Source: an uncultured Gammaproteobacteria bacterium (lineage in GTDB: Bacteria > Patescibacteriota > Patescibacteriia > UBA11705 > DATKZF01). Taken from it: a stretch of 64,000 nt of DNA. Position numbers and translations under genes: made by a program. The stretch spans positions 109,631-173,630 of the forward strand of contig CAYPKD010000005.1 in assembly GCA_964411255.1 (NCBI GenBank), read 5' to 3'. Shown piece after piece: positions 5,795 through 57,804 of this stretch. Position 1 is the first letter of the stretch. Every line of letters starts with the position of its first letter. The notes beneath the pieces were generated by a model that saw nothing but the letters and a program-made list of their open reading frames with translations, had not been told where the DNA came from and ran no database searches.

Positions 5795-7078
5795 TTAATT
5801 AAAACTTTTCCTTGATTTAAGAATCTGCTCTTCAGAAATCCAGTGTTTTCTGAGTTCACCGCAAAGGTATGTTGAGCCGGTGATTATAAGTGTTTGGCTT
5901 GATTTTAGATTTTGTTTGGCTTTATAAAATGCCTGCCATGGATCTAAAAAAGTTTGGCATTTTACTTTTGGCCAATGCTTTTTTATTATTGAAGAAATTT
6001 TTCTTGGATCAGTGGAATTTCTTTGCTCAATTAAAAAGCGTGTTGCATAAACCTGAGCGTTGAAATTGTCTAATAATGGTTTAAGACATGCTTTGATATC
6101 TTTTGGTGCAGAGAGGGCAAAAATAATATGGAGTTTACCCTCGGGGAAGCAGAGCCTCCCCTCGATACTGGAGTTTTTCAGTTTTTTAGTTAAGTATTTT
6201 AGTTTATCAGGATTGTGTGCTGAGTCTAAAATTATTAAAGGTTTTTTTTGAACAATTTCAAAGTGACAGGGCAGTTTAGCTGTTTGAATTCCTTTTTCAA
6301 TGTATTGATCTTTTATTTTTAAATGTTTGGCAATAGTTGCTGCAAGTTCCTGGTTTGGATTATTTTTGAAGTTAACTTTTATTAGATTAGATTTTGTTTT
6401 TTTTGTTTCGTTTTGAAATATTTTTAATAGTTGTTTTTTTCTCTCAGTGGTAAAACAAATGTTTTTATGAATAATGCCAGCCTTTTCATATGCAATATCT
6501 TTTTGAGTCGGGCCGATTATGTGCAAATGATCTTTTCCAATATTGGTAATGGCTGCAAGGTCGATTCTGCTTAAAGCGTTGGCAGCGTCATAGCGTCCGC
6601 CGCAGCCGACCTCAATTATTATGTAATCGCATTTTTTTTGTTTAAAATAAAGCAAAGCAATTAATAAAAAATTTTCAAAATATGATGGCGCATCAAGTTG
6701 CTGATAACATTTTTCAATGATTGGTTTTGCTTTTTCAACAGTTTGAACAAATTCATTTGGACTTATATATAATTCATTGACTTTGATACGCTCAATCGCA
6801 GTTGTTGGATGTGGTGAAAAGTAAGTGCCCACTTTTTTCCCAGCCTGAGAAAGGATTTGATGCAGAATATTGCAGGTTGTACCTTTACCACTGGTGCCTG
6901 TGACCACAATAATTTTTTTTGCAAACTTTTCCGGATTTCCTGCCAGTTTTAATAAAAGTTTTGCTCTTTGTAAATAGTGTTTTGGATTTTTGGCCCCAGT
7001 AATAGAAGCATCCTGGCGGATGTTGGCCAGGGAAGACAGATATTCAAAGGTTTGGTTGTAATTACCGTATGGATTCAT
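5795..7078 (-). CDS. folC: Folylpolyglutamate synthase / Mur-ligase family protein (FolC-like)
   Basis: P-loop VVTGTSGKGTT, YFSPH, EVGCGGRYDA and TNIGKDHL motifs typical of FolC/Mur ligases. Confidence 0.8.
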   Translation of the reverse strand: MNPYGNYNQTFEYLSSLANIRQDASITGAKNPKHYLQRAKLLLKLAGNPEKFAKKIIVVTGTSGKGTTCNILHQILSQAGKKVGTYFSPHPTTAIERIKVNELYISPNEFVQTVEKAKPIIEKCYQQLDAPSYFENFLLIALLYFKQKKCDYIIIEVGCGGRYDAANALSRIDLAAITNIGKDHLHIIGPTQKDIAYEKAGIIHKNICFTTERKKQLLKIFQNETKKTKSNLIKVNFKNNPNQELAATIAKHLKIKDQYIEKGIQTAKLPCHFEIVQKKPLIILDSAHNPDKLKYLTKKLKNSSIEGRLCFPEGKLHIIFALSAPKDIKACLKPLLDNFNAQVYATRFLIEQRNSTDPRKISSIIKKHWPKVKCQTFLDPWQAFYKAKQNLKSSQTLIITGSTYLCGELRKHWISEEQILKSRKSFN

Positions 7079-8992: not shown

Positions 8993-9213
8993 TTGACAAA
9001 AAATTGTTTATGTGATATAATGGAATATTCTGGAGTATAAATTAGGGGGCTTATTTTAGGCAATATGCCCACAATTTTGCTTATCGGCCAGGTCAATGAA
9101 TGCAGCCCCTCCTCTGCAGTCTAGTGCCTGTGTTGGTAAGCAATATTGTGGATGGTATTGCCTCCACAGTTGAATCCCTAATGCCCTCTGGTATCTAGGG
9201 ATTCATTCTTTTT
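8993..9213 (+). ncRNA. Candidate structured ncRNA 2 (about 185 nt), family not identified (6S-like size; possible cis-leader of the downstream gene)
   Basis: Consensus promoter TTGACA-17-TGtgaTATAAT (8993-9021). GC-rich body includes a CCAGGTCA...GCAGCC segment and a CCCCUCCU loop. Terminator gaatcccta...tagggattc plus T-run at 9172-9213. Confidence 0.35.
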
Positions 9214-9258
9214 GGAAGTAATTCGATCTAATATATTTCAAGAACAAGGAGAGAGACG

Positions 9259-9654: not shown

Positions 9655-9660
9655 AAAAAA

Positions 9661-9700
9661 AGAGCGCTGATGAAAATTCTTCAGCGCTCTTAAATTTTAA
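9661..9700. terminator. Bidirectional hairpin terminator (agagcgctga...tcagcgctct)
   Basis: 10-bp stem flanked by an A-run (5') and a T-rich tract (3'); on the minus strand it is followed by T8. Confidence 0.5.
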
Positions 9701-9740
9701 ATAAAAGTATTTCTTTGGATATATTTTTAGTCTTTTCAAA

Positions 9741-9889
9741 ACAGGCCAAGGCCTGCGTTAGGCTTTGCAATGTTGGCTTGCGCCAAGTTACTTTTTGGCA
9801 CCAAAAAGTAACCAAAAAGTGCTGGGGGGCTTCAAATGCGAAGCATTGATTACGTTTGATGATCTTGCCAGGGGCAATCAGCCCCCCAG
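9741..9889. repeat. Structured GC-rich non-coding segment in three parts
   Basis: (i) A 47-nt repeat at 9741-9787 is also present at 61111-61157. (ii) A perfect 12-bp hairpin GTTACTTTTTGG/CCAAAAAGTAAC sits at 9787-9812. (iii) A cloverleaf-like element at 9822-9889 is closed by a 9-bp stem ctggggggc/gccccccag and contains internal hairpins gcttc..gaagc and ttgcc..ggcaa. No canonical tRNA T-loop is present. Confidence 0.4.
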
Positions 9890-10005
9890 ACCCCCGATTC
9901 TTTCAAAGATAAAAAGTTCTGATTGTTGAGGCTCTTGTTTCGTAACTTTCGTATTGCCTAGAATAATTGAACCCATCGTCCTATGAGATTATTGGTAATC
10001 GAAAA

Positions 10006-34364: not shown

Positions 34365-34596
34365 AGGTTACGGACTGATGCGGATTTTGGCAGATTATTG
34401 CAGAGTAGAGCAGGCTTTACGCGGACAATCCCTGCTGTCCAATCTGTCATCTCGAGCCCCTCGACTACGCTCAGGCCATGGCTCGGGGCAGGCTCCGTCG
34501 AGAGATCTTATATCAGACTTGCATAACCCAAAACAGGAGTAAATTTAGAAATTTATATTTTATATTTGATAATATTAAAATAATGACTAATGAATA

Positions 34597-35709
34597 ATGT
34601 CTAACGATGTTATGCCAGAAAAGCCAGACCAATCATTAGAAAGTCAATTAAAAATGGCCCGCCCGCAGCGTGCTGAGGTTAAGCGTGTGCCGCTAACGCC
34701 TGATGAAGATAAGTTTTTGTTTTTAATTTTAAATAAAGCAATTGCAGCGGAAAAGGCTGGCGATTTAGCAAAGGCGATTGGATTTTATACAGACTATAAA
34801 AACGAGTTATTAAAGATAAAAGGAAAAAAAGAAGGTGAAAAGACTTTTGAACTGAAAAAGCAATATAATGAACAAATTGATACTTTGAAAAAGGCCGGGT
34901 TGATTGAGCAATTACCAAGTGGAGAAATGGGATTTGTTGATATAAATGGCCAACCAAGAAGAATCCCGACTTATGAAGAAATTTTAGAGCGAGTTGAGGC
35001 CAAGAAAGAATTTGTTGAAAAAAAGAAAGAACAAGGTTTTACGCAACTGCTTTTAGTGCCGTTTGGTATGAAATTGAGTGATATGGCCGAGAAAGCCAAG
35101 GAATTAATATTAAAAAAACATAGACAAGGTAAATTAAAGGGGACAAACGGAGATGAGCTTGAATTGAATGAAGATCAGCCTTTTTGGCTGGCAGAAGAGT
35201 ATAAAGGGGGAGAAGTGGATATTGGTGAAGATAGCGATTTAGTTTATTTTCCAGAAAAGTATGATCAGGAAAATCACGGCGGAAAAACCAAGAAGGAAAT
35301 TATAGAAAAGACAGATGGCTGGGACATAATGTTTATAGAAGATTTATCGGATTTGCCAGCAGAAGGCAAGGGAAAAGAAGTTGGCGGAAGAAAGCAATTG
35401 GAAGCGAATAAAACGCCGGAGCAATATTTAAAAAAAATGAAAGAAGACGAGCAATACGCGGGAGAGAGCGGCATGACGCCTGAAGCTGAGCTGGCATATT
35501 TTATGCATTATTTGCAGAAAAATAATCAGGTAATTGATGATTGGGAAGGCAGCGGTAAAGTTAATTGGAATTTAGGCGGATATTTAAAAAGCTCGGGCGG
35601 CGTTTGCTGTTCAAGCTGGCTTCGGTCTGGTCGGCGGATGCGCCTGTTTTGGGTCGGTTCTGGTCTTCCCGATGACTTTCGCGCGGTTCGTGCCTCGGTC
35701 AGGATTTAG
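34597..35709 (+). CDS. Hypothetical protein; the C-terminal about 45 codons run through a GC-rich segment of non-protein-like composition
   Basis: Charged low-complexity N-terminal two-thirds. The tail SSGGVCCSSWLRSGRRMRLFWVGSG... is encoded by the GC-rich 35580-35710 segment, and the true 3' end is uncertain. Confidence 0.45.
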   Translation: MSNDVMPEKPDQSLESQLKMARPQRAEVKRVPLTPDEDKFLFLILNKAIAAEKAGDLAKAIGFYTDYKNELLKIKGKKEGEKTFELKKQYNEQIDTLKKAGLIEQLPSGEMGFVDINGQPRRIPTYEEILERVEAKKEFVEKKKEQGFTQLLLVPFGMKLSDMAEKAKELILKKHRQGKLKGTNGDELELNEDQPFWLAEEYKGGEVDIGEDSDLVYFPEKYDQENHGGKTKKEIIEKTDGWDIMFIEDLSDLPAEGKGKEVGGRKQLEANKTPEQYLKKMKEDEQYAGESGMTPEAELAYFMHYLQKNNQVIDDWEGSGKVNWNLGGYLKSSGGVCCSSWLRSGRRMRLFWVGSGLPDDFRAVRASVRI

Positions 35710-38432: not shown

Positions 38433-39524
38433 ATGGAAGATGTGTGGGAAAAGAAAATTGAATCTTTATCAAAGGTTTTAAATATTTCAAAACTTGATAA
38501 AGAAATAAAAAAGCTTGAACAAAAAATGGCCAAGCCGCGCTTTTGGGATGATCAAAAAAAAGCAGCAAAAATTTCAAAAGAGGCAAATTTTATAAAGGAA
38601 ACAATTGAAAAATTTGAAAGTTTACGAAAAGATTTAAAGGAGTTAAAAGAGTTAAAGAAGTTAGCAAAAGAGGAGTCAGCCTACGCCAAGGCTTCGGCCG
38701 ACAAGGAAAACTGGGATAAAGAATTAATTGAAAAGGAAAAACAAATTGAAAAGTTATATAACCAGCTTGAAATACAGGCTTTATTTAGTAGTAAATATGA
38801 TAAAGAAAATACATTGCTTAGTATTTATGCTGGCGCAGGCGGCACAGATGCCCAGGACTGGGCAGAGATGCTGCTTCGAATGTATTTAAGGTATGCTGAA
38901 AAAAAAGGCTGGAAAACACAGATTATTGAAATTTCCGCTGGTCAAGAGGCTGGCATTAAATATGTGACCATGGAAATTCAAGGCCCATTAGCATATGGGC
39001 ATTTAAAAGCAGAAAAAGGCGTGCATCGCCTGGTTCGAATTTCTCCGTTTGATGCAGAGAAAATGAGACACACTTCATTTGCCATGGTTCAGGTTATGCC
39101 AGAGATCGAAGAGGAAGTTGAGCTTGAAATTGAAGAAAAGGATTTGCGATTGGATACGTTTAAGTCAGGCGGCCATGGCGGCCAGGGCGTAAATACAACT
39201 GATTCTGCAGTTCGGATTACCCATATTCCAACGGGTATAGTGGCTGTTTGCCAAAATGAGAGATCACAAGCGCAAAATAAAGAAACCGCAATGAAGATTT
39301 TAAAATCAAAGCTTCAGCATTTTTTTGAAACAGAAAAAGAAGAAGAACAAAAAGAAATCCGTGGTGAATTTACTGAAGCTGCCTGGGGAAATCAGATCCG
39401 GTCTTATGTTCAGCATCCATATCATCATGTTAAAGACCATCGGACAGGCTATACGGTTGAGGATGTTGACGAAGTTTTAGATGGGGAACTGGATGAATTT
39501 ATTTTGGAAAAATTAAAAAAGTAA
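38433..39524 (+). CDS. prfB: Peptide chain release factor 2 (single uninterrupted ORF, no +1 frameshift site)
   Basis: SPF tripeptide (RISPFD) and GGQ (SGGHGGQGVNTTDSAVRITHIPTGIV). Contains the GC-rich in-frame segment EESAYAKASAD at 38670-38705. Confidence 0.9.
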   Translation: MEDVWEKKIESLSKVLNISKLDKEIKKLEQKMAKPRFWDDQKKAAKISKEANFIKETIEKFESLRKDLKELKELKKLAKEESAYAKASADKENWDKELIEKEKQIEKLYNQLEIQALFSSKYDKENTLLSIYAGAGGTDAQDWAEMLLRMYLRYAEKKGWKTQIIEISAGQEAGIKYVTMEIQGPLAYGHLKAEKGVHRLVRISPFDAEKMRHTSFAMVQVMPEIEEEVELEIEEKDLRLDTFKSGGHGGQGVNTTDSAVRITHIPTGIVAVCQNERSQAQNKETAMKILKSKLQHFFETEKEEEQKEIRGEFTEAAWGNQIRSYVQHPYHHVKDHRTGYTVEDVDEVLDGELDEFILEKLKK

Positions 39525-42746: not shown

Positions 42747-44411
42747 ATGAAAATTTTGGGCATATTTTTAAAAGCAATGTTTGTAGCCATGTGCGTATGG
42801 ATTTTTGTTTTTGAAGCGATTTGGATTTTAGTTTCAGTTTCTAAAGCTCAGCCCAATGTGTACCAGGAAAAGCAACGACCGGTTTGTGCGCGCAAGGATT
42901 TATCAGCCCAGGATTTTTATTTGTTTGAAACATCTGCGATTTTAGACGAGGTAAATAATTTTATCGGGCAAAGTAAAAAAAATATTTCAGTAATTTTTGT
43001 AGGTGACATAATGTTGTCCAGAGACGTCAATGATCGGATGCGAGCTTATAATGATTATTTTTATCCTTTCCTAGAGCTGGAAGGTTTTTTAAATAATGCT
43101 GATTTGACTTTTGGCAATTTAGAATCTCCGATTTTGTACGGCAATTATGTTCCGGTAAATAGCTTTTCTTTTGATGCTCATCCGGAAACCGCTAAAAGTA
43201 TGGCCAAGGCTGGGTTTGATGTTTTGTCTATGGCCAATAATCATGCTGGTAATATGGGTCAGGCAGGATTTTTGAAAAGCTTTGAAAAAATTAATGAAAA
43301 TGGAATGTATTATACTGGAGCAGCAAAGAAAAGATCTGACTTGGACCAACAAGGCGTGATCACAGAAGTTGAGGGTATAAAAATTGGCTGGTTAGCATAT
43401 GCTTATGGCCCGTCACATTATGGTACTGACGGAGATTATCCTGGCATGGCCTTGATGGATATTGAAAAAATGAAAAAGGATGTAGAACGTTTGAAAAAAG
43501 AGACTAATCATGTTTTTGTCTCAATGCATGCTGGTACAGAATATACTGAAAATATTTCAGGCCAGCAAAGAGATTTTGCCCAGGCAGCAATTGACCAGGG
43601 CGCAAGTATGGTAATTGGCCATCATCCGCATGTGGTTCAAAGAGTCGAAAGGTATAATGATGGCTTTATAATGTTTAGTTTGGGAAATTTTATTTTTGAT
43701 CAGATGTGGTCGCAGAATACCAGGCGTGGATTGGCAACAAAAATATATTTAGACAAAGAAAATATTAATCGGTTTGAATATTATCCGATAAAAATATTTG
43801 ATTATAGCCAGCCCAGATTAGCTGAAGAGAATGATAAGCAAAATATTTATAATCGACTTAGAACAGAATTGAATTTGGAAAAAGCAGTTTTTGTAAATGA
43901 TAATAAAATTAAGTTTACAGAAATAGCGACTCAAGGTTTAGCTGAGCAAATAGAAGAAAAAGTTTTAACAGCTGATTTAAATGAAAATAATATACCTGAA
44001 TATATTTATCAAAGAGAAGATAAGCTTTATATTATTGAAAATAATACTCTCCAATGGCAAAGCTTTCCAGACTGGCAGGTGAAAAAAGTATTCTTAGCAG
44101 ATGCCAATGCAGATGGCAAAATTGACATTAATATTATTTTAGATAAAGAAGATGGCAATCATTGGTTTATTTATGGATGGAGAAGAGACAGCTGGCAGCC
44201 GTATTGGGATTCATCAGAGATATTCCCAGCCATTATAGATATTGAAGAAATTTCTCCAGGCAAGTTTTTAATTTTAGAAAAAGAGAATGATAAAAAGAAT
44301 TTGACTGTCTGGGAATGGGAAGAATGGGGACATAAATTGGTAGATGAAGTGAAAGGGGTGGAATTTGAAAGTATTGAAAGGGTTGGGAATGGATTGTTTT
44401 TTATAAAATAG
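42747..44411 (+). CDS. CapA/PgsA-family metallophosphatase-like capsule (poly-gamma-glutamate) biosynthesis protein with extra C-terminal domain
   Basis: N-terminal TM; FVGDIMLSR, FGNLESPI, DVLSMANNHAGNMG, VSMHAGTEY and GHHPHVVQ motifs. Confidence 0.8.
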   Translation: MKILGIFLKAMFVAMCVWIFVFEAIWILVSVSKAQPNVYQEKQRPVCARKDLSAQDFYLFETSAILDEVNNFIGQSKKNISVIFVGDIMLSRDVNDRMRAYNDYFYPFLELEGFLNNADLTFGNLESPILYGNYVPVNSFSFDAHPETAKSMAKAGFDVLSMANNHAGNMGQAGFLKSFEKINENGMYYTGAAKKRSDLDQQGVITEVEGIKIGWLAYAYGPSHYGTDGDYPGMALMDIEKMKKDVERLKKETNHVFVSMHAGTEYTENISGQQRDFAQAAIDQGASMVIGHHPHVVQRVERYNDGFIMFSLGNFIFDQMWSQNTRRGLATKIYLDKENINRFEYYPIKIFDYSQPRLAEENDKQNIYNRLRTELNLEKAVFVNDNKIKFTEIATQGLAEQIEEKVLTADLNENNIPEYIYQREDKLYIIENNTLQWQSFPDWQVKKVFLADANADGKIDINIILDKEDGNHWFIYGWRRDSWQPYWDSSEIFPAIIDIEEISPGKFLILEKENDKKNLTVWEWEEWGHKLVDEVKGVEFESIERVGNGLFFIK

Positions 44412-45222
44412 CTTACTCGGGGAATCACAGATTCCCCTCGGCAGTAGGATTTTGACTCGGGGAATCGCATATTCTCCTCGTCACTCATCCTGCGCTGAGG
44501 GGTAACTGAGTTACCCCGACCGGGTATTAAGTATGTCAGTAGAAAAGCATAGTGAGATAAAAGAAAAAGGCGGAATCTATTTTTTTACAACTAGGGTTCT
44601 AGGTGGTAATAATATTTTTATTAAAAAGAGATATATTGATATTATTAAGAATGCGTATGATTTTGCAGAGAAGAAAAGAAATATAAAAAATTTAATTTGG
44701 ACTATAATGCCAAATCATTTGCATTGGATATTTAAGTTAGATGAAAGTAATGATGATCCAATTCCAATTTATCAATACTTTAAACGGCATACTGCCAGAG
44801 AGACATTGCAATTGTTAATGCATGAATCACAAATGAAACCATTTGAAATAGTTAGGTTTTTTAGAAAGTGTAGGTATTACACAGCTGAAGAATTATTAAG
44901 AAGTTTTAAAATTAGAAATAATTATCAATTGTGGGAAAGGAAGCCAGATTTAAAATTATTATATTCCTCTGAGTTTATTAGAATAAAAGTTAATTATATT
45001 TATGAAAATCCGTTCAGAGAGCCGTGGACATTAGTACAAGACCCACAAGATTATCCATTTACTTATATAAATTGGGATTTGATAAACGAATTTTTAGAAT
45101 AAAGTCTCTCTTACTCGGGGAATCGCAGATTCCCCTCGGCAGTAGGGTTTTGACTCGGGGAATCGCCAGCCTACGCCAAGGCTTCGGCTCGCAGGCAGAT
45201 TCCCCTCGACAATAAGATTTTT
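44412..45222 (+). mobile_element. REP-RAYT-REP unit (IS200/IS605-related REP-associated tyrosine transposase flanked by palindromic REP copies)
   Basis: REP hairpins ctcGGGGAATcacagATTCCCCtcgg at 44416-44440, 44456-44480, 45114-45139 and 45154-45210 (interrupted); additional hairpin ggggtaactgagttacccc at 44498-44519. Confidence 0.7.
44533..45102 (+). CDS. REP-associated tyrosine transposase (RAYT; Y1 HUH transposase, IS200-like)
   Basis: HUH motif IMPNHLHWIF; catalytic-Tyr region YQLWERK...EFIRIKVNYIYENP matching RAYT/TnpA-REP conservation. Confidence 0.8.
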   Translation: MSVEKHSEIKEKGGIYFFTTRVLGGNNIFIKKRYIDIIKNAYDFAEKKRNIKNLIWTIMPNHLHWIFKLDESNDDPIPIYQYFKRHTARETLQLLMHESQMKPFEIVRFFRKCRYYTAEELLRSFKIRNNYQLWERKPDLKLLYSSEFIRIKVNYIYENPFREPWTLVQDPQDYPFTYINWDLINEFLE

Positions 45223-46065
45223 ATGAAACAAGAGATTTTAAATTTATTAGAAAAATACGATTTAGGTCCAAAGAAATATTTTGGGCAAAATTTTTTAATA
45301 GATCAACAGGCCTTAAAAAAAATAATTCAGGTTTCTGAGATAAAAAGCGCTGACAACATTCTAGAAATCGGACCTGGACTGGGGTTTTTAACAAAAGAGC
45401 TTGCGAAAAAGGCAAAAAAAGTGGCAGCTGTTGAAATAGATAAAAGCTTGTATTTTATTTTAAAACAGGAATTGAAAAAAATAAAAAACATTGAATTAAT
45501 TAATGATGATATTTTGCAATATGGTTTGGAAAAACTAAAAAAAGTTTTTAATAATCAAAATTATAAAATTGTTGCTAATCTGCCTTATCAGATCACTTCT
45601 CATTTTTTGAAAAAATTTTTAACAGCCCCATATCATCCTGAGCAAATGACTTTGATGGTCCAAAAAGAAGTGGCTGAAAGAATATGCGCTAAGCCTGGAG
45701 CTCACAGCCTGCTTTCGTTATCTGCGCAGTTTTATAGCCAGCCTGAAATTATTCAGATCGTTGATGCAGAAAGTTTTTTTCCAAAGCCAAAGGTGGACAG
45801 TGCGATTATAAAGTTAAAAAATATTCACAAAAGTTCAATAGAAGTGGATGAAAATCTTTTTTTTAGACTTTTGCGCATTGGTTTTTCAGCAAAAAGAAAG
45901 CAATTGCAGAATAATTTAGCTAATGGGTTTCATGAAAATAAGGAAAAATTCAAGGATTTGCTTGAAAAAACAGGCCTTTCTGTGCAAATTAGGGCACAGG
46001 AGCTGGATCTAGCAGATTGGCAGGATTTATACAAATACTTAATAAAATTGAAAATATTAAAATAG
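45223..46065 (+). CDS. rsmA: 16S rRNA (adenine1518/1519-N6)-dimethyltransferase
   Basis: YFGQNFLID; SAM-binding ILEIGPGLGFLT; NLPYQITS motif; terminator agtgga-taac-tccact plus T-run at 46068-46097. Confidence 0.95.
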   Translation: MKQEILNLLEKYDLGPKKYFGQNFLIDQQALKKIIQVSEIKSADNILEIGPGLGFLTKELAKKAKKVAAVEIDKSLYFILKQELKKIKNIELINDDILQYGLEKLKKVFNNQNYKIVANLPYQITSHFLKKFLTAPYHPEQMTLMVQKEVAERICAKPGAHSLLSLSAQFYSQPEIIQIVDAESFFPKPKVDSAIIKLKNIHKSSIEVDENLFFRLLRIGFSAKRKQLQNNLANGFHENKEKFKDLLEKTGLSVQIRAQELDLADWQDLYKYLIKLKILK

Positions 46066-47059: not shown

Positions 47060-50000
47060 ATGAAATATTTCCGAAAGAAAAAAATAAAAAGCATAATAAT
47101 AGTTGCGATTATCGCCTTAATGATTTCAACAGGCGTTTTTTTTGCAATAGGACCAAAACAAACAAAAGCGCAGGGAATGCCAGTTTTTGACGCTCAACAA
47201 TGGAATTTAGAAATGAATTGGTTGTTGTGGGAGCTTGATAAGTATCTTGCAGAATTGCAGGCGAAAGCTGCAGAAGAGGCAAAGAAGGCAATTTTAGAAA
47301 AAATAAAGCAGGCATTTATTCGTACCGCTGCTATTACGTTAAAAAATACTTTAATATATTTTATTCAGGAGGCTGGCAGGCAGACAATGGAATACGTTGC
47401 GACTGGCAGCTGGAGCCAGGGGCCAATGTTTTATGAAAAAACATTTGATTATTTTAAAGATACGCTTATTGGTGCGGCTTCGCAGGAATTTTTAGATGAG
47501 CTGGCTTATAATCTCTGGTCAGAAACTGGTTTTGATATTTGTGATCCTGATGTGTCAATAAAAATGATGATCATGCTTAACCTTCAGTTGACATTACCGC
47601 ATCCGACTTATGAAAAGGTAGCGCCTCGTTGCGACTGGAATAAAGTACGAGGAAACTGGGAAAACTTTTATGCTGATATTAGAAAAAATGTTGAGGATGT
47701 GAAAGGCCAGACATTTGCTGCTATGGGCGCAATGCAGGAATCATTAGATCCTCAGCAAAATGATTTTGGTATATTTTTAAAAACCATGGATGATAATATT
47801 ACCAAGCGGCAAGAGCAATATGAAAGGGAAAGAGATGAGAGAATGGCGCCATCCAAATTAAGAGCCAAAACATCATTGGTTACTGGTACAGTTGAGACGC
47901 CAAGTTTTATGATTGAGCCAGTTGTTAGAAGCGATGTTGAAGCTATTCAAGCCAGTAGAAAAACTGAGTTAAAAAGTGGAGAAGCAATTATAGAAGAAAT
48001 CCCAGAACAGGTATTGTTTGCTTTTATTCAAAGTTTTGGCCCGCAACAGTTTTTAATGGCAGCATTGCAAAGGATTTTTGGTGGTTTGGTAAAAAAAGCT
48101 GAGAGCTTTAATCCTGTTCATCAGGTTTTTGAAACGAAAAAAGCAATTCAAAAAGTAAATACAGAAATTTTAACTGCTGATTTTTCATTTGAGCCCAGAG
48201 ATGTCAGCCTAATAGACGAATTTGTAAATTGTCCGGCTGAAAGTTCGCCGTCTACAGGCGCAGATGTTCCTCGGGGAATCAATGACTGCGTAATGGACAG
48301 AAATTTTGCTGAAGCAGTCAGAAGATCATCTTCTTCAGGCGAGGCAATGACTGTTCAAGCAGCAATAAATGAAGGCTTATTAGATCCGAATAAGCCTTTT
48401 TATAGTTCAAGCGATCCAGAAAATACTCATGCTAAGTGTTATTCATTCGGCTATTGCTACAGTAATTTGAAAAAATTAAGAAAAGCCAGAATAATTCCAA
48501 TTGGCTGGGAAATAGCTGCTGAAAAGACTGCAGAGACAGGAAATAAATCACTACAGGATATAGTAAATGAATTTAACAATGAAAATTCAGATTTTTACAG
48601 ATTAATTGATCCAAGCTGGGTTTTGAAAGAACCGATTAATCAATGTAGAGCAAATGTATATGGCCCGGACTTGATTGCCAGCGGAGCTGAAGACCGGCCA
48701 GAAGTATGTGCTGATTATCGCACATGTATTGAAGAGACTCCAAACGGAGACTGCATTGGCGGATATGGATATTGCGCTGAAGAAGAAAGAACCTGGCGGC
48801 TAGATGGTGATTCATGCGAGCCGCAATACGCTGGTTGTACAACTTTATTTGACCGAAACGGTGTAGGGACAGGTTGGCTATTAGATACATTGGATCCAGT
48901 TGCTTGCAGCGCTGCTGACGTTGGCTGCCAATTATACAGTTTATGGAGAAATTATGAAACAGGTAGTGGCGAATGGATATATGATCTTGCCAGTAGCGAA
49001 AGCGACCGATTCTTATATTTAAATAAAAATGTTGAAAATGAGCTTTGCAGTCCGGAAAAAGAAGGCTGCACCCGGTTTATTAGAACAGCCGCAGATCTTG
49101 GTACGAATTTGATTTACAATTCAGGATTTGAAGAAGTGCCGGATAATGCAGATTTAACTGATTTGGTCAGTGTTCCAAACTGGGGAGATATAAATATTTC
49201 TGATCAAATATTTAACACTGGAAGCTATGCTACATTTTTTGGAAAAGAGACACCGAATTCTATAATAACATCTGAATATATTAATGTTGTTCCAAAAGAT
49301 TATGACAGATATTTTGTGTTAAGTGGATATGGCTATAGAACGTCAGATGCAATTGGAATAAATTGTACTCTGCAAACTTCTGATGGAGTTGGGCCTTTAT
49401 CAATTCGAACTTCATTTTTAGATTCAGGTCCTACAGTGCTTGAAACCTGGACCAGAAAATCATGGATTTTTAATATTCCAGGTGATTCGAATACAGCTTT
49501 TATCCAGATTCAATGTGCCCCTACAGATTTAATTTCAGGAGTGATTCATTATATGGATGATATTCAGCTTGAAGAGGTGTTAGATCCAAATTTAATTGCT
49601 TCATATAATGACTATGCCACTGTTAATGCTTCTTATTTAAAACAGGCGCCAGAATATTATGACTGCTATGATGGCAATCCAAATACCAATCATGTTAACT
49701 GCGATAATTTTGCTCCGATTTGCGATGCAGATGATGTAGGCTGTGAAACATACACGCCAACAGACGGCGGAGCATCGCAGAATGCAGTAGTGGGCAGATA
49801 TAATTATTGTCCAGCTGAATGTAATGGCTATGAAACTTTTTCCCAATCTGAAACATTTTTTGAGCTGTCAAAATTCCCACTATACTTTATCCCAGCCACA
49901 GCCAGGCAATGCTCAGAGCAAAACGTGGGCTGCGAAGCATATACAAATGTTGATGTGCTGGAAGCTGGTGGTGAGGCCGTCAGTTATTTCAAACAAATCA

Positions 50001-53000
50001 GACAGTGTTCAAAACCTGGGCCAGACTGCGCAACATTTTATACCTGGGAGGGATCTGAAGTAACCGGTTATCAGATTCAAAACCACAGTTTGCGAGATAT
50101 TGATGGAGATAATGATCCGGATGTTACCAGTGCTGCTCTAGATGGTCAGAATTGCAATGCTGATATTTTTGCTGCTCAGATAAACCCTGATTGCAGACAA
50201 TTTTATAATCAAGATGGTGACATATTTTATCATCTAAAATCTTTGACCATCACTTGTGCTGAAGATTGCAGCCCTCATCGGCTGGAAGTGGAAGATGCTT
50301 CAGAAGAAAAATGCACCAGCTCAAATGGTGAATGGGATGATAATACTAATAAATGTATTTATGACATTATAGTTGATGAAGCAGTAACTTGTCCGGTACA
50401 GGAAGTCGGTTGCAGAGAATACAAAGGCAATTTTGCTGGTGATATTGAAATATTACATACTCAGGATTTGGAAAATTATGATTCTCATGAGTGGAATCGC
50501 GGAGAGCTGTCCTCTGAGTCATTTGCATTAGGTGGTAAATCATACCGGGTGCCACAAACTGCACAAACCGGGGAGACTGCAGTTTATTATCGATTACCAG
50601 GATTCCCAGATCCGGATTTTGCTTTGACTTTATCAGCTAATGAACAATATCAATTTGAAATTTGGATAAAACCTAACTTAGAAGATACAGCTGATATTGC
50701 AGATATTGATAATATTGATGTTAATGGATTTGAAACAGATATTAATATTTTAGGCTTTAGCCAAATTCCTTTGAATATAAACAGTTTAGACTGGGCTGCT
50801 TATGGTTTGATTATCAAGCCAACCACTGATGTGGCAATCAACAGCATCAGCTTTACAAACATGGTCAAGCAAGTGCCAGGACAATCAAGGCCTCAGACCA
50901 TGGGATATTTTATAGATAATATTAAAATAAAAAAGATACAGGGAATGCAGACTTTAATCAGAGATACCTGGAGCACACCAGAGACTTGTGACAAGCGGCT
51001 TGATACAGATGAACCTTTGCCTCAGGCGATGCTGGGCTGTCGGGAATATAATGACCGGGCAGGCAATTTGCATTATTTGCGTTCTTATAATAATTTCTGT
51101 GACGCATCAGTTGTTGGCTGCGAAGCTTTAATTGATACAAAGAATTCTATATTGCATGATGGTAAAGTTTATGATCGAGAACCTGTAGATTTATGCAGTT
51201 TTTCTACTACTATGGTAGATCAACCATTGGGCAGGACCTGTAGAATGAAACTATTGCATTACATGTGTACTCAAAATGCAGATTGGGTTGGTGATTTTGC
51301 TACATTTGAAAATCCTTTGGAGGCCTGCTTAAATCAAAATAATAATGTTGTTCCAGTTACTGACTATGCGCTAGAGAAAGACACTTGCGAGACTATTGCT
51401 GAAAATGGAACAGATAATATTGCCTGGATAAATGAAAGATGCGAAAGAGTGGGTGTGCCTCCGCTGTATGAAGTATCTGATGACGAATATGTGTACCGGG
51501 TGATTTCTGAAGAAAATTCATGTACGGCAGAGGATAAAGGATGCACAGCTACAGCTTTGGCTAATTTAGATTATGATTTGAGTATTGGCGATTGGTTTGA
51601 AACCCATATTAAAATAGATCCTGATAATTTGGATGATAAAATGTGCAATGCTAACTCTGTTAGATGCGAAGAATATATTGATTCAAATAACAATGTGTAT
51701 TATTTTAAAAATCCAGCATTAAGATATTGCGAATATAGGACTGATCCATCTGGTGACGGCTGGTTTGAAGCTGGCAGTAATGAAAGATGCTTAACCTGGC
51801 AGCCATATAATGGCATTGATATTCCTTTGCCGTATTATCACTGGGATTATAGGGATGATACACAATTATCAGTTGACAGTTATGAAGGCTGGCCAGCAAT
51901 GTGTCCTGAAGAAGCTGATACTTGCACGGCATTTTTAGATCCTGCTGCGAAAACAGATGATAATCTAGTAGGCCATGCATATTTTTTGAAAAATAATGAA
52001 AAAATAGACAAAGAATCCTGTGAAAATATGGTTGATCCTGGTCAGGGTTGCGTATTATTCTTAGATACTTCAGATCCTAATGGCCCTCAATGGAGTTCTG
52101 AATTATCTAACTTTGAGAATGCTGGCTCTGGAGAACCCATTCCGCCTGTTTCAATTAATGAAACAACGAATGCTCAAAATACTATTAATCTTTTAACTAC
52201 TAATGATGTCCAAGCTGAAACAATGAGTTTTTCTCAATATTTTGATTGGATAGATAGTTTAGAAGCTTCTGAATTGTCTGTTGTATATGATTTTGCATCA
52301 GAGAAAAATAATTATTGGGTTGATATTAATTATTCAGATGGTAGCGGTGGTGTTTCAAATGTAACTCAGGCATTTAATGATAGTAATACTATAATAAAGG
52401 TAAAACAAGATCGCCAATGCTCAAAGTGGTATACCTGTTTAGGTCCGAGCTATGTTTGGGATCAAAATGCAGGTCAATGGGTTGAGATTTGTGAATTAGT
52501 TGGATTATGTGATGAATATGGCAATCAGGGTGGGGGCGCATATTGCAGCCATGTTGTATTGCCTGATGAAAACACGACTGATCCTCTCAATCAGAGGGAT
52601 TACTTTACAGTCGAAGATTATCAAAAACGACAATCAGCAAAATATCAATATTTAAATAAATATTTTGATCTATATACTCCTGAATTTTCTGGTATGGCAA
52701 TTGTAAACAATATCCCTTTGCAGTATTTAGAGCCAAAGGATTTGAATGAAGATGTAGAAGATCCATACTATACTTTAGCTGGAAATATGAATCAGATTGG
52801 AGATAATAATGAATGTAGTGGTATTGTCAGCGATATGATAGAAGCAGTTGTTCCTAATTTAGCAGATCAGCTGCCAACTTCTGCTGGCGCCTCAGTTAAT
52901 GGAAAATGTTATGCGCCTAAGAATTTATTTGAAACATTAAATTCTACAACACCTGACAGATGGCCGGAGGAAAAGCTGTGCCGCGCTTATCCCCGGGATA

Positions 53001-56000
53001 ACACTCCATTTCCGGTTGATGCTGTCTTTGAGACTTTAAGTGATCCTGAAACAAAGAGCAATGAGAAAAAACGTGAAAAATATAGAAATGTAAATAATTT
53101 CGGATATAATTTGACAGAAATGACATCTGACGAAAAGGTTGCAGATTCCGGATGCAGATATAGAGAAGTTAAATATGGCAGGGGACAGGTTACGTTATAT
53201 TTATCCCCTGATATGCCTGCGCCAACTGCAATTTGTGAACAAACTCAAAAGCCATGCGAATGTCTGGATCAAAGAAATCCTGATAATCCTGTCTGTATGG
53301 ACAGCGACTGTCCGGGTACTCAGTCATGTTTGCAAAAAGAGTTAAGCATAGTTGATTTATATGGATGGGAAGGATATTGTTTGGAAGAAGATGAATCAAT
53401 AAATTTATTTGCAAATGAAAATAAAAATCCATGTTTAACATGGTATCCGGTTGACATGACAGTTGGTTTGTCAGACCATTATAATCAATATGCTAAGGCT
53501 GGGTATACAAGTAATGAACTTCCATATTATTGCTTAACTGCAGAGCCTTATCTGCAGGAAAAAGCATATTTTTCCGGCTGTACAGCACAGGAAACTACTG
53601 GTGCATGGAATGGATTTTTAGCATGGACTAATATAAATAGTAGTAGCTGGAGCGTTCATGGTGAGTGCAATTCCCATGAATCCAAGAATCAAAAATTATG
53701 GACTGAATGGCTTTATGAAAAAATACAAGAAGCAGCGACTGATTTTGAAGCAGAAACTCCAGATGATAAACTATATGCAGTTTCAAGCGCATTTGGAGAA
53801 TTTTTATCCACCGCAGGTACTGGACATGAAAGAGGCTGGTATCCTGATGAAGACGATGACGATAGGATTGAAATGGGTGAAATGAGAGCTGAAATGAATA
53901 GTATGTTAATAAGTTATTATTTTTCAGCTGCATCAGATAATGATAATAATTCATCTGATCCATATTATAATAGAGATTGCGGTGATGGATATTTTCCAGT
54001 ATTTGCTCCATGCGGTGGAAATGAATCTGGGAATCCTTGGGAAAATTCTCCAGGAATGGGATATAAATGCGATTCAAATGAAGCTGGAGGTGTTTTATGT
54101 GTACCGTTTAATTCATATATTGATATTCCTGATGAGGAAATAATAAAATGGAAAGAAATGGATCCAATAGGAATTGATGTTACAGCTTTTCAGGGTGCTG
54201 AATGTAGGCCGCATTTTACTAGAGGAGAATTATTACGAAAAGGAACTGTAACTGCAGGTGGTAAAGAATCTTGTTTCGACAATTCCAGAAATGTGGATCC
54301 GTATAGAAATTTCGCGGTTTATACTGATGATGATGGTAATACAGTAAAAGAATGTGAAACTGATGAAGTAATATGGGTTAATACTGTATATGATATGGTG
54401 GTAGCTGTTGATAACGGCTATGAAGTTGCATGGCCAAGTGCAATCCCTAAACCTGAGGAATGGAATGATTGGGGGTCTACAAATAGTAAAAGTAGTATAA
54501 TTGATGATGTTTTCTCTTTGAGGAAAAGTGATACAGGTGGGCCGTATTTCTGGAGAGTTCGGGACAAATCAGAGTTAAAAGACGGGGCAGAAGAATATTT
54601 ATACGGGACAACTGCTTGGTCGGGAGGAAATGCCAGTGATGGAATTTGGGATGCTGCATTATATGAGCGAGGCTGGGATAATATTAATTTTGATTTTATA
54701 GTGCCATTATATAGATATTGTGTTCAAAAAACCCCAGTCACTGATACATACAGAATTTATACTGATGCAAATGAAAATGACTGGGATACAGTTGCTGAAT
54801 TTATTGAGAGAGAATCAATTGAAGCACAAGATGTTAAGTCGTCTAACGGCACAGTGGGTGACTTATTAATATCAGTATCAGCGAAAAACGATACTTATTT
54901 AAGTGGTGAGGGTCAAATCTTTGCAACAGGTAATACATTATGCAGCCATTTAGCAGAAGTGGAAAATACAAAATTTGAAGATAAAGCCTGGACAGACAAA
55001 TTATATAATAATGATTTGTCAAAGAGACTTGATGCCATTCCATATTTAACACAAGGTACACCTGATGATGCGTGGGAACTGTTGTTATATGATAATTTAC
55101 GATTTTATTTAGGTTCTATATCGTTTAATTATGGACAAACAGAGATGCCAAGGCTTGTAGAAGGTGAATTAAATGATGAATTTGTTCCTGCTGCCACCTG
55201 CGCATACAACACAGGGATAGTTGAGACTTCAAGTCCTTCATTATTAAATTATCGAATGTTATTGAATCCAAAGATTACAGATGATTTTAAAGGAACTGAT
55301 GTGGAATGTTCTCCTGTTACATATCAAAAAGTTGGAGGAGGATCCTTCCAGACAACATCTACATTATTAGATAAAGAATCAGCAAAAGCTTATAATGCAT
55401 ATAGAGTTGAGGGGGGTAGATTCCCTGATTGTATTGGTGGTGGAGATTGTTCTATAGATACACCTTATGGATTATCTGCTTCTACATATTATGGAGCTGA
55501 CCCAAGTGATGGTGCTGATGATTTTAGTTACGGATCTGTGGCAACACCGCGAAGATTAAGAATGACTCGTCCCTTAGAAAGATTGCAGCTCATATTTGCT
55601 AAAGTTTATGATGTATGGAGATGGCAACCGATATTTGAAAATAGTTCAAATTCTGTTGATAATTATTTACCAGGTGGATCAGGTGTTTCTCATGATGATC
55701 ATGCTAAAAGATGGTATAGGGGATTTGAATATAAGTCTGATAGAAATTTAGTTGATGATATGGGCGGTGATGCATATATGTCAACATTATCAGAGAATAA
55801 TGTACAACCATATTATAAATATACTGATGATGCTTCATATAATATTGTGAAGGATGTAGATTATTCAGAAGTTTTAATTCCTCAGGTTACAGGCGTGGAA
55901 TTAAGACCTGGCAAAAAATATCGGGCTGTACCAGGTACCATTACATTAGAAACAGAAGCTGAAAGAAAAAATGATGGAGTTCTTGGATTAGACAGTGATA

Positions 56001-56692
56001 ACAGAGGGCAATTAGTCGTCAGCTCTCAATTCTTTGGCTGGGCAAATAATGATCATATGCCTGTTCGAAGTGTTCGAGTGCATTGGGGTGACGGCGTGGA
56101 TAGCATATCTGGTGGTGCTAAGGGTCAGTATAAAAATCATAAAGCTGTTTGCGCAGAAACTCCAGATCAACCAATAAGTTTTTGTGCTGGAGGGGGAAGC
56201 GCAGGGCAAGAAACTTGTTTTTATGATGATGATTGTTCAAATCAGAATTGTAATACAGGTGTTTCAGTTGTTCAATTTGGAGCAGTACCTGATGCCTGTA
56301 CAATGAGTTATTTCCAAAAGACTCATGTATATGCTTGCGCAGAACATGGAGGTGATCTGCCAATTTGTGATAATTCTGCTACCAGCATAATTAATAGTGG
56401 ATCATGGGGTGATGTTCCGTTGACGACTGGATGTTATGATTCTTCCTTTATTCCATCAACTGTTGATGATAATGGTTCGACCTCAGTAACTGGCGCATGT
56501 TTATTCAGACCTGGCGCTCAGGTATTGGATAACTGGGGCTGGTGTAATGGTGATTGTGAAGGATCTGGAGAGGGATGTTATAATGATCCTGTTCCGGGAC
56601 TTCAAGCAGGAGTTTGTGATAATTCTGGTGATCCATTGCACGACAAAGCTTATACGCGCTACAATGGTATAATTATAGTTATTCCTCAATAA
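47060..56692 (+). CDS. Giant (3210 aa) Cys-rich secreted/membrane-anchored protein of unknown function
   Basis: Uninterrupted 9.6-kb ORF. N-terminal TM IIIVAIIALMISTGVFFAIG. Numerous paired Cys and Asn/Asp/Tyr/Trp-rich beta-like regions. Terminator (ccctttaata/tattaaaggg) at 56712-56746. Confidence 0.8.
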   Translation: MKYFRKKKIKSIIIVAIIALMISTGVFFAIGPKQTKAQGMPVFDAQQWNLEMNWLLWELDKYLAELQAKAAEEAKKAILEKIKQAFIRTAAITLKNTLIYFIQEAGRQTMEYVATGSWSQGPMFYEKTFDYFKDTLIGAASQEFLDELAYNLWSETGFDICDPDVSIKMMIMLNLQLTLPHPTYEKVAPRCDWNKVRGNWENFYADIRKNVEDVKGQTFAAMGAMQESLDPQQNDFGIFLKTMDDNITKRQEQYERERDERMAPSKLRAKTSLVTGTVETPSFMIEPVVRSDVEAIQASRKTELKSGEAIIEEIPEQVLFAFIQSFGPQQFLMAALQRIFGGLVKKAESFNPVHQVFETKKAIQKVNTEILTADFSFEPRDVSLIDEFVNCPAESSPSTGADVPRGINDCVMDRNFAEAVRRSSSSGEAMTVQAAINEGLLDPNKPFYSSSDPENTHAKCYSFGYCYSNLKKLRKARIIPIGWEIAAEKTAETGNKSLQDIVNEFNNENSDFYRLIDPSWVLKEPINQCRANVYGPDLIASGAEDRPEVCADYRTCIEETPNGDCIGGYGYCAEEERTWRLDGDSCEPQYAGCTTLFDRNGVGTGWLLDTLDPVACSAADVGCQLYSLWRNYETGSGEWIYDLASSESDRFLYLNKNVENELCSPEKEGCTRFIRTAADLGTNLIYNSGFEEVPDNADLTDLVSVPNWGDINISDQIFNTGSYATFFGKETPNSIITSEYINVVPKDYDRYFVLSGYGYRTSDAIGINCTLQTSDGVGPLSIRTSFLDSGPTVLETWTRKSWIFNIPGDSNTAFIQIQCAPTDLISGVIHYMDDIQLEEVLDPNLIASYNDYATVNASYLKQAPEYYDCYDGNPNTNHVNCDNFAPICDADDVGCETYTPTDGGASQNAVVGRYNYCPAECNGYETFSQSETFFELSKFPLYFIPATARQCSEQNVGCEAYTNVDVLEAGGEAVSYFKQIRQCSKPGPDCATFYTWEGSEVTGYQIQNHSLRDIDGDNDPDVTSAALDGQNCNADIFAAQINPDCRQFYNQDGDIFYHLKSLTITCAEDCSPHRLEVEDASEEKCTSSNGEWDDNTNKCIYDIIVDEAVTCPVQEVGCREYKGNFAGDIEILHTQDLENYDSHEWNRGELSSESFALGGKSYRVPQTAQTGETAVYYRLPGFPDPDFALTLSANEQYQFEIWIKPNLEDTADIADIDNIDVNGFETDINILGFSQIPLNINSLDWAAYGLIIKPTTDVAINSISFTNMVKQVPGQSRPQTMGYFIDNIKIKKIQGMQTLIRDTWSTPETCDKRLDTDEPLPQAMLGCREYNDRAGNLHYLRSYNNFCDASVVGCEALIDTKNSILHDGKVYDREPVDLCSFSTTMVDQPLGRTCRMKLLHYMCTQNADWVGDFATFENPLEACLNQNNNVVPVTDYALEKDTCETIAENGTDNIAWINERCERVGVPPLYEVSDDEYVYRVISEENSCTAEDKGCTATALANLDYDLSIGDWFETHIKIDPDNLDDKMCNANSVRCEEYIDSNNNVYYFKNPALRYCEYRTDPSGDGWFEAGSNERCLTWQPYNGIDIPLPYYHWDYRDDTQLSVDSYEGWPAMCPEEADTCTAFLDPAAKTDDNLVGHAYFLKNNEKIDKESCENMVDPGQGCVLFLDTSDPNGPQWSSELSNFENAGSGEPIPPVSINETTNAQNTINLLTTNDVQAETMSFSQYFDWIDSLEASELSVVYDFASEKNNYWVDINYSDGSGGVSNVTQAFNDSNTIIKVKQDRQCSKWYTCLGPSYVWDQNAGQWVEICELVGLCDEYGNQGGGAYCSHVVLPDENTTDPLNQRDYFTVEDYQKRQSAKYQYLNKYFDLYTPEFSGMAIVNNIPLQYLEPKDLNEDVEDPYYTLAGNMNQIGDNNECSGIVSDMIEAVVPNLADQLPTSAGASVNGKCYAPKNLFETLNSTTPDRWPEEKLCRAYPRDNTPFPVDAVFETLSDPETKSNEKKREKYRNVNNFGYNLTEMTSDEKVADSGCRYREVKYGRGQVTLYLSPDMPAPTAICEQTQKPCECLDQRNPDNPVCMDSDCPGTQSCLQKELSIVDLYGWEGYCLEEDESINLFANENKNPCLTWYPVDMTVGLSDHYNQYAKAGYTSNELPYYCLTAEPYLQEKAYFSGCTAQETTGAWNGFLAWTNINSSSWSVHGECNSHESKNQKLWTEWLYEKIQEAATDFEAETPDDKLYAVSSAFGEFLSTAGTGHERGWYPDEDDDDRIEMGEMRAEMNSMLISYYFSAASDNDNNSSDPYYNRDCGDGYFPVFAPCGGNESGNPWENSPGMGYKCDSNEAGGVLCVPFNSYIDIPDEEIIKWKEMDPIGIDVTAFQGAECRPHFTRGELLRKGTVTAGGKESCFDNSRNVDPYRNFAVYTDDDGNTVKECETDEVIWVNTVYDMVVAVDNGYEVAWPSAIPKPEEWNDWGSTNSKSSIIDDVFSLRKSDTGGPYFWRVRDKSELKDGAEEYLYGTTAWSGGNASDGIWDAALYERGWDNINFDFIVPLYRYCVQKTPVTDTYRIYTDANENDWDTVAEFIERESIEAQDVKSSNGTVGDLLISVSAKNDTYLSGEGQIFATGNTLCSHLAEVENTKFEDKAWTDKLYNNDLSKRLDAIPYLTQGTPDDAWELLLYDNLRFYLGSISFNYGQTEMPRLVEGELNDEFVPAATCAYNTGIVETSSPSLLNYRMLLNPKITDDFKGTDVECSPVTYQKVGGGSFQTTSTLLDKESAKAYNAYRVEGGRFPDCIGGGDCSIDTPYGLSASTYYGADPSDGADDFSYGSVATPRRLRMTRPLERLQLIFAKVYDVWRWQPIFENSSNSVDNYLPGGSGVSHDDHAKRWYRGFEYKSDRNLVDDMGGDAYMSTLSENNVQPYYKYTDDASYNIVKDVDYSEVLIPQVTGVELRPGKKYRAVPGTITLETEAERKNDGVLGLDSDNRGQLVVSSQFFGWANNDHMPVRSVRVHWGDGVDSISGGAKGQYKNHKAVCAETPDQPISFCAGGGSAGQETCFYDDDCSNQNCNTGVSVVQFGAVPDACTMSYFQKTHVYACAEHGGDLPICDNSATSIINSGSWGDVPLTTGCYDSSFIPSTVDDNGSTSVTGACLFRPGAQVLDNWGWCNGDCEGSGEGCYNDPVPGLQAGVCDNSGDPLHDKAYTRYNGIIIVIPQ

Positions 56693-57608: not shown

Positions 57609-57637
57609 GCAAAAACGTAAAATGTCAAGAGATTATA

Positions 57638-57804
57638 TAATGTCGGAATTAAATCATTCGTATTGTCTGTAGGGACAGAATATTATTCTGTCCCTACACT
57701 GCGGACATCATTTTTTTCCATAATGTCGGAATTAAATTATTCGTATTGCCTGAAAGGACAGAATAATATTCTGTCCCTACATTACCGACATCATTTATTT
57801 TTTT
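57638..57804 (+). repeat. Two tandem 83-bp direct repeats, each a nested palindrome ending in a T-run (hairpin-terminator-like)
   Basis: Inner palindromes gtagggacagaata|tattctgtccctac at 57669-57697 and ggacagaataatattctgtcc at 57756-57776; outer arms atgtcgg...ccgacat; partial third copy (gaaaggacagaata) at 57495-57508; a further hairpin plus T-run at 57822-57848. Confidence 0.6.

Follow-up and report, generated by a model that had tools for sequence, protein, structure and literature searches.

The DNA analysed here, referred to below as the window, is a 64,000-nt stretch of contig CAYPKD010000005.1 from an uncultured member of the Patescibacteria, or Candidate Phyla Radiation (CPR). It carries the gene for release factor 2 (RF2), prfB, and a second locus at which a predicted REP-associated tyrosine transposase (RAYT) gene is bracketed by repetitive extragenic palindromic (REP) hairpins (Table 1). 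The two loci share a 22-mer, CAGCCTACGCCAAGGCTTCGGC, of which the window holds exactly two occurrences, 38677-38698 within prfB and 45167-45188 within one of the hairpins, both on the plus strand. No third match was found in the window when three mismatches were allowed, and 100 dinucleotide shuffles of the window gave no match at the same tolerance, the chance expectation being 0. An earlier note on this DNA had reported the identity between prfB and the intergenic REP, and it stands; the coordinates given there for prfB were off by one (38676-38697), the rest of the description being accurate. In both places the 22-mer belongs to a 30-nt unit, which we call the module.

Results

A 30-nt insertion in the RF2 gene

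Database matches to the prfB product are named release factor 2, and the protein carries PCRF and RF-1 Pfam domains and matches RF2 in the PDB with E=6e-104. At the start of the open reading frame (ORF), no programmed +1 frameshift arrangement was seen. Residues 82-91 form a 10-residue insertion relative to all 12 aligned RF2 orthologs, the 88% identical P0002 among them, and the same gap shows when the protein is aligned to solved RF2 structures. The window DNA reads GAGGAG/TCAGCC...GACAAG/GAAAAC, and the matching site of a sister lineage (L005) CAGGAA/GAGAAT, which corresponds to a 30-nt insertion whose boundary can be rotated leftward by up to 2 nt. The insert is missing from the DNA of the three relatives compared, and the EESAYAKASAD segment, for which the earlier note had raised lineage specificity as a point to check, is indeed particular to this lineage.

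In an AlphaFold (AF2) model of the protein (mean pLDDT 77.5), the insert forms the turn of domain 1 at which one long helix (residues 41-84) gives way to the next (88-117), antiparallel to it, with a local pLDDT of about 60. The model thus places the insert at a solvent-exposed, structurally tolerant tip of the domain-1 helical hairpin, in a protein that is predicted to be intact. The patch is GC-rich within an AT-rich gene, and both module copies stand out as GC-rich islands in a window of 36% G+C overall. In all overlaps, the window is matched at 100% identity by four independent assemblies, with the RF2 site present in all four and the intergenic copy in two.

A RAYT gene and its REP hairpins

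The ORF at 44533-45102 matched the NCBIfam equivalog NF047646 over amino acids 8-176 of 189 with 80.5 bits (cut-off 80; E=1e-22), remained below threshold for Pfam Y1_Tnp (16.7 versus 23), and could be aligned to E. coli TnpA_REP (PDB 4ER8) with E=3e-7. In this alignment H62-L63-H64, the HUH motif, falls on the HMH of 4ER8, and NYIYENP (Tyr155, Asn159) falls on DYIYINP, which holds Y115 and N119, while the position of H123 is occupied by Glu. The roles of the catalytic residues of TnpA_REP have been described (PMC3479197), and RAYTs cleave and rejoin single-stranded DNA at REPs in vitro (PMC3479197). To judge from its motifs and matches, the ORF encodes a genuine RAYT; it is present once in the window. 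We found no paper linking RAYTs to the CPR in the literature searched, and the occurrence of a RAYT/REP system in a CPR genome is new here.

The REP hairpin, CTCGGGGAATC-GCA-GATTCCCCTCG, measures 25 nt, with an 8-bp stem and a 3-nt loop. Four copies are arranged as two pairs that bracket the RAYT gene in direct orientation and not in the usual inverted one. The sequence is an imperfect palindrome that is repeated and RAYT-associated, with a fifth, diverged copy in folC. The hairpin of the earlier note is thus real, and it flanks a transposase gene that the note did not list. No GTAG or CGTC tag lies at the hairpin foot; in each pair, the second hairpin has a GTAG 12 nt upstream of it (CAGTAGGRTTTTGA-CTCGGGG). 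The contig of an independent assembly (L003) ends inside the REP copy beside the RAYT gene, at a point equivalent to about 45140 in the window, as would fit repeat-induced assembly breaks.

Two relatives carry related systems. In L137, which is a more distant relative than L005, a RAYT ortholog (58% identical) occupies the same syntenic site (PGA_cap - RAYT - rsmA), and arrays of a REP of its own, TCGGGGGAAC-GCA-GTTCCCCC, present also in inverse form, surround it; all of these REPs have only the bare 3-nt loop (GCA/TGC). In L138, a RAYT homolog (35% identical) is accompanied by yet another flanking REP, with a 39-nt period. The RAYT is absent from the closer sister lineage L005 (84-86% DNA identity), which keeps one hairpin between PGA_cap and rsmA, and the breakpoints of its BLAST alignment to the window fall in the REP left arm; in about 35 kb of contigs examined from this RAYT-less lineage, one REP copy was found. 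These comparisons indicate a classical RAYT/REP system that appears to be vertically inherited and co-evolving, and whose RAYT the sister lineage probably lost by REP-REP recombination. We also scanned the metagenome collection for the REP arms separated by a 3-33-nt loop and obtained eight unrelated high-GC chance matches; this collection evidently lacks the window's lineage.

A module nested in a REP loop

In the last of the four hairpins, the loop is split between GC and A by exactly 30 nt. The single hairpin that L005 retains has this same long form (ACTCGGGGAATCGCCATCCTATGCCAAGGCTCCGGCTGGCAGGCAGATTCCC), and its module, at the same site, is an ortholog (41.8 bits) that has diverged at 5 of 30 positions, at about the rate of the surrounding DNA. 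Because the REPs of L137 keep the bare loop while L005 has the long form, the 30 nt is indeed an insertion into the REP loop, as the earlier note had proposed. A recent origin of the intergenic insert was considered and rejected on account of the diverged L005 copy. Presence and absence among the relatives give both insertions their polarity and set them at different ages: the intergenic insertion is the older event, predating the split between the window's lineage and L005, and the RF2 insertion the younger, specific to the window's lineage. The ancestral intergenic form, GCCAGCC...GGCTGGCAGGC, has a 32-nt identity to tRNA-Ser-adjacent copies in Dehalococcoidales. At both junctions there is a 2-nt rotational ambiguity, which also fits insertion by microhomology or template switching.

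The two units read TCAGCC-(14 nt)-GGCCGA-CAAG in RF2 and CCAGCC-(14 nt)-GGCTCG-CAGG in the REP loop. Between them, five of the 30 positions are different, none outside the outer stem and tail, and the central 20 nt are the same; the outermost pair, T...A in RF2 and C...G in the REP loop, is a compensatory difference. Five random substitutions would all fall within those 10 positions with a probability of about 0.002. Because the differences are confined to the arms and tail, as they are among family members in general, the two copies are best viewed as siblings and not as parent and child. Nineteen of the 22 shared bases make up a core found exactly at loci in about 15 phyla, and the other three are stem bases. 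The 22-mer would accordingly represent the conserved core of a family plus three stem bases, and its identity, which had been taken as a sign of exchange between the two sites, loses that meaning.

A covariance-model census of the 64 kb returned two module copies. A weak match at 35171-35200 (10.6 bits, E=2.6), inside ORF 34597-35709, has module-like arms and tail (TCAGCC...GGCTGG-CAG) with only 4 nt between the arms, and may be due to chance.

A hairpin family present in many phyla

The module family was sampled by exact matches to a 19-mer, CCTAYGCCAAGGCTYCGGC, in a collection of one genome per species amounting to 596 Gb. This core was found in at least 120 stretches that, by their record titles, belong to about 15 phylum-level groups, among them several CPR lineages, Bacteroidota, Verrucomicrobiota, Alpha-, Gamma- and Deltaproteobacteria, Chloroflexota, Acidobacteriota, Planctomycetota, Omnitrophota, Lentisphaerota, Bdellovibrionota and Actinomycetota; by our own arithmetic, about 17 matches would be expected by chance under uniform composition. 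Perhaps a fifth of the exact matches lack the stem and are probably fortuitous, most of them in high-GC coding DNA (e.g. L012, L044, L066).

The module consists of a 6-bp outer stem, free in sequence but complementary, an interior, TAC-GC-CAAG-GC-TTC, that retains two pyrimidine-pyrimidine mismatches (T.C and C.T), and a tail of 4-6 nt, CA(A/G)G(CC). Its thermodynamic fold is ((((((...((....))...)))))). The flanks of the core, which were unspecified in the search, are themselves conserved, with YCCN before the core and NGGR after it, followed by CA(A/G)GCC. For the three flanking positions, 114, 97 and 111 of 122 copies show a pair (C-G, T-A, A-T or T-G), and one position further on 34 of 122 do, which is background. 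This hairpin architecture covaries: an alignment of 124 sequences holds 64 double-sided compensatory cells, versus 14.1 +/- 3.1 in shuffles (none of 500 reached 64), and its covariation score of 0.176 compares with at most 0.063 in slid registers. Diverged copies with 2-4 mismatches were also recovered from the family loci (about 0.83 Mb), 27 of them versus 3 in shuffles. In their interiors TAC...TTC becomes TTC...TAC or TGC...TCC (with a G-C middle pair) and GC...GC becomes GT...AC, and their centre is CAAG, TAAA, TGAA or CGAG, all with the T.C and C.T mismatches kept. The middle pair of the module is A-T, T-A or G-C.

The module is thus, like members of the REP class, a short imperfect palindrome with conserved mismatches. 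It does not resemble an intrinsic terminator, since the stem is followed by the CAAGCC consensus and no T run. Rfam gave no match in the window at the gathering threshold, and none at E<=10 in 44350-45300. Literature searches for the literal DNA and RNA spellings of the module found no papers. In 7.3 Gb of plasmids, a BLAST search with a 32-nt consensus was negative, and viral contigs held only 6 module matches, with no sign of a phage vector. No RAYT-like ORF was detected near the module in the 120 loci examined (phmmer and a three-sequence profile), which says little, RAYTs being single-copy.

Genomic contexts of the module

Of the 124 copies, 11 have a tRNA gene no more than 60 nt away, and many of them abut it at 0-3 nt (L017, L031, L038, L048, L069, L103). 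At tRNA 3' ends the module has the same orientation as the gene and its stem takes in the CCA (CCAGCC...GGCTGG); at 5' ends it lies on the opposite strand and shares bases with the acceptor stem. In the RNase P RNA of a Geobacter metagenome-assembled genome (L013, 2586-2977; 307 bits), the module forms the P3 helix, 8 nt longer than in the consensus, and the tip of P12 is occupied by a related palindrome, GCCGAAGCUUAUGCGAAGGC. In lower-GC genomes most copies are intergenic, with a weak excess of the sense orientation after gene 3' ends (12 vs 6). Hairpin loops were rejected as a general target, as outer stems of at least 9 bp were found in 3 of 122 copies versus 0.3% in controls.

The module also resides within real genes, in varied frames and orientations, as in the Toprim domain of RecR, in TsaD and in HsdS; RecR and TsaD have about 12 and 17 extra residues there relative to solved homologs. 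The suggestion that a small palindrome can land in coding DNA with the frame kept holds for RF2, recurs for the module in these proteins of other phyla, and recurs for the RAYT's own REP in the window's FolC.

REP-class palindromes in FolC

The GC island at 6140-6165 in folC is identical to the RAYT-flanking REP at 21 of 26 positions. The closest relative, whose sample also yielded a contig of the RAYT-less lineage, has no such island and is 6 residues shorter there; a related patch is seen in three relatives that are more distant. In L150, the folC DNA carries a perfect L137-type REP, GGGGGAAC-TGC-GTTCCCCC, at that codon position. A different GC-rich palindromic insert of 10 codons (...CGCCTGCCTGCCGGCCAGGCAGG..., IRQRRLPAGQAG) is found elsewhere in FolC of the relative P0132 (L151, 945-1050), and in-frame GC palindromes seem to be common in this clade. 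A simple in-frame insertion with target duplication at the FolC REP was rejected, being incompatible with the 40-nt period of the surrounding AACTCCA repeat.

Table 1. Positions in the window of the module copies, the REP hairpins and the genes that carry or flank them.
Feature	Position	Strand	Description
Diverged REP copy in FolC	6140..6165	.	CTCGGGGAAGC-AGA-GCCTCCCCTCGA; in frame in ORF 5795-7078 (minus strand); encodes SSIEGRLCFPEG
prfB (RF2)	38433..39524	+	Uninterrupted single ORF, 363 aa; SPF and GGQ motifs
RF2 insert	38676..38705	+	30 nt, in frame; TCAGCC-TACGCCAAGGCTTC-GGCCGA-CAAG; encodes SAYAKASADK; covariance model 48.1 bits
57-nt direct repeat, copy 1	44412..44468	+	REP, spacer and next left arm; 96% identity to copy 2
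REP hairpin, uninterrupted	44416..44440	+	5' of RAYT
REP hairpin, degenerate	44456..44480	+	2 mismatches; 5' of RAYT
RAYT (predicted)	44533..45102	+	189 aa; NCBIfam NF047646
57-nt direct repeat, copy 2	45110..45166	+	With copy 1, brackets the RAYT segment missing in L005
REP hairpin, uninterrupted	45114..45138	+	GCA loop; 3' of RAYT
REP hairpin, long form with module	45154..45208	+	Arms CTCGGGGAATC / GATTCCCCTCG; RNA fold -26.2 kcal/mol, z=-2.9
Intergenic module copy	45167..45196	+	30 nt in REP GCA loop; (C)CAGCC-TACGCCAAGGCTTC-GGCTCG-CAGG(C); covariance model 47.1 bits

Other features of the window

An intergenic GC-rich patch at 34451-34508 (CTCGAGCCCCTCGACTACGCTCAGGCCATGGCTCGGGGCAGGCTCCGTCGAGAG) contains REP-like words (CCCCTCGA, CTCGGGG); as a structured patch it was rejected, its folding being no better than that of shuffles. 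At 57637-57800, also intergenic, two tandem repeats of 81-83 nt each hold a near-perfect 31-nt palindrome, T-GTAG-GGACAGAAT-ATT-ATTCTGTCC-CTAC-A, a GTAG-footed hairpin followed by a T run, of a family distinct from the RAYT's REP. A 360-nt GC-rich stretch at 9296-9655, with a doubtful ORF of 131 amino acids, is possibly an unrecognised structured RNA or foreign DNA; Rfam searches of 9100-9950 gave sub-threshold noise only. The window also contains two giant ORFs, 18717-25487 (2256 aa), with internal Cys/Asp-rich repeats of the GEDCDDGN type, and 47060-56692 (3210 aa).

Discussion

We consider it probable, with odds of roughly two in three, that the 30-nt segment is a copy of a REP-class miniature palindromic hairpin module that was inserted at least twice in this Patescibacteria lineage, once in frame in RF2. 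The older insertion, common to the sister lineage, would have entered a REP hairpin next to the resident RAYT gene, within the hairpin's GCA loop, and the younger one would have added exactly 10 codons to RF2 at the domain-1 hairpin turn. The module may move as a single-stranded DNA hairpin that is cut and rejoined by an HUH Y1 transposase, or may enter through a microhomology or template-switch repair event, and only frame-preserving insertions in tolerant loops would survive selection. The resident RAYT is the obvious candidate for such an enzyme, and we put forward its having mobilised the module as a tentative possibility.

Several points weigh against this reading. The RAYT's own REP has a different sequence from the module. 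In L137 and L138 the module does not flank the RAYT; in the window it is only nested in one REP and does not have the place of a repeat flanking its cognate RAYT. No GTAG or CGTC tag ends the module, whose consensus tail is CA(A/G)GCC, with GTAG internal on the complementary strand. Neither the RF2 insert nor the REP-loop insert shows a target-site duplication, and no common target motif was seen. The copy number is low: in 41 kb of relatives, the covariance model found a single copy, the ortholog of the intergenic one. As for the family at large, its sampling with an exact 19-mer partly imposes the invariance of the interior. Sequences shared exactly between phyla are also unusual among REPs, most of which are specific to a lineage; the sharing could instead reflect a constraint at the level of RNA or of a host factor.

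The strongest competing account, although we regard it as unlikely, sees in the module above all a functional RNA hairpin (a stable helix cap, or an element for 3' ends, processing or stability), selected wherever it is present and conserved across phyla through either a universal factor that binds RNA or an exceptional stability, with the copy in RF2 a by-product. The covariation that keeps the stem, the sense-orientation copies that abut tRNA 3' ends, the P3 helix of a functional-looking RNase P RNA, the weak sense excess after genes and a C(UUCG)G-type sequence within the module would all suit such a role. However, there is no Rfam family match and no U-tract after the module, its folding energy is unexceptional for its composition (z=-1.7), and copies are found in either orientation, on the opposite strand at tRNA 5' ends, and within ORFs both antisense and in three reading frames. 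This account also leaves the appearance of a 30-nt unit in RF2 unexplained.

Somewhat less likely again is direct ectopic copying between the two window sites by gene conversion, template switching or break repair, with the REP-loop copy, 6.5 kb away, as the donor for RF2; this corresponds to the recombined sequence suggested in the earlier note. The two copies lie on the same strand with no others in the 64 kb, both junctions allow the 2-nt rotation expected of microhomology, and the 22 identical bases include an A at stem position -2, which just 10 of 122 family members have. The partly compensatory, arm- and tail-confined differences nevertheless fit family-level variation and not a copy of one site in the other, and flanking homology is absent. 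Moreover, the interior of the intergenic copy is not under strong constraint, since L005 has three of its five changes there or in the inner stem. Chance, codon-driven convergence or an assembly chimera is effectively refuted, for although some fortuitous and stemless 19-mer matches are expected and seen, the shuffles gave no match, the orthologs lack a patch that is GC-rich in an AT-rich gene, the sites are identical in independent assemblies, and the flanks left free by the search are conserved and covary.

The system of the window resembles E. coli TnpA_REP (PDB 4ER8) and the Pseudomonas REPIN-RAYT system in its RAYT, present once in the window, with HUH motif and catalytic Tyr, its flanking short imperfect palindromes, its apparent vertical inheritance at a fixed locus and the co-evolution of REP and RAYT, evident when the window is compared with L137. 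It differs in its CPR host, in having few REPs (5 in 64 kb), arranged as direct-repeat pairs with no GTAG at the foot, and in a 30-nt module unlike the RAYT's REP that is nested in the loop of one of them. REPs that lie wholly inside ORFs and are translated have been documented (Di Nocera et al. 2013, PMC3733652), as have REP families in which short loops exist alongside long self-complementary loops with GC/GGC termini (PMC3733652); the same paper mentions the Rickettsia palindromic elements (RPE). Those intragenic and loop-variant REPs end in GTAG or CGTC tags and are confined to particular lineages, whereas the window module has a CARG tail, holds GTAG internally on the complementary strand only, and has an exact core in about 15 phyla.

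RPEs lie in frame in conserved protein genes and also in RNA genes, are tolerated at surface positions, measure about 100-150 bp and are confined to Rickettsia. The window unit is likewise a palindromic in-frame insert, but it has 30 nt and is found across phyla. The GC clusters of yeast mitochondria are GC-rich palindromic mobile units of about 30-50 bp that reside in an AT-rich genome, also in coding sequence (e.g. PMC4478555); being organellar and without an associated transposase, they offer a behavioural analogy only. IS200/IS605 Y1 transposition and PATEs share the proposed chemistry, with an HUH/Tyr enzyme acting on single-stranded DNA hairpins and no target duplication. The window unit, in contrast, has no identified left/right end pair, guide or cleavage tetranucleotide, and is far smaller than any PATE.

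The type of event seen in RF2, an in-frame REP-class palindrome, is thus already known, and the cross-phylum module is a surprising variant of it. New are the nesting of a second, distinct palindrome in a REP and, above all, the exact sharing of a core across phyla together with its occurrence at tRNA ends and in RNase P RNA. Within 64 kb of a reduced CPR genome, the window holds a transposase, its REPs, a REP in FolC and a second palindrome both in a REP loop and in RF2; the FolC and RF2 inserts are absent from the available contigs of the RAYT-less sister lineage.

We advance, as speculation of which we are doubtful, that the 30-nt hairpins with a CARG tail form one coherent miniature mobile element of bacteria at large, the smallest described, which would be mobilised in trans either by HUH transposases of the RAYT type or by some universal process of the host. 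If so, one dominant variant would be shared exactly by about 15 phyla and would target tRNA ends, RNase P P3, palindrome loops and, in frame, essential proteins, which would imply either frequent transfer between phyla or an unusually strong shared sequence constraint. A single mobile family would challenge the view of REP-type repeats as private to lineages, would provide a minimal substrate for the study of hairpin-directed DNA transposition, and would explain the GC-rich peptide patches (AYAKASAGK, PTPRLRRA, RLRQGFGGQA) that contaminate metagenome protein predictions.

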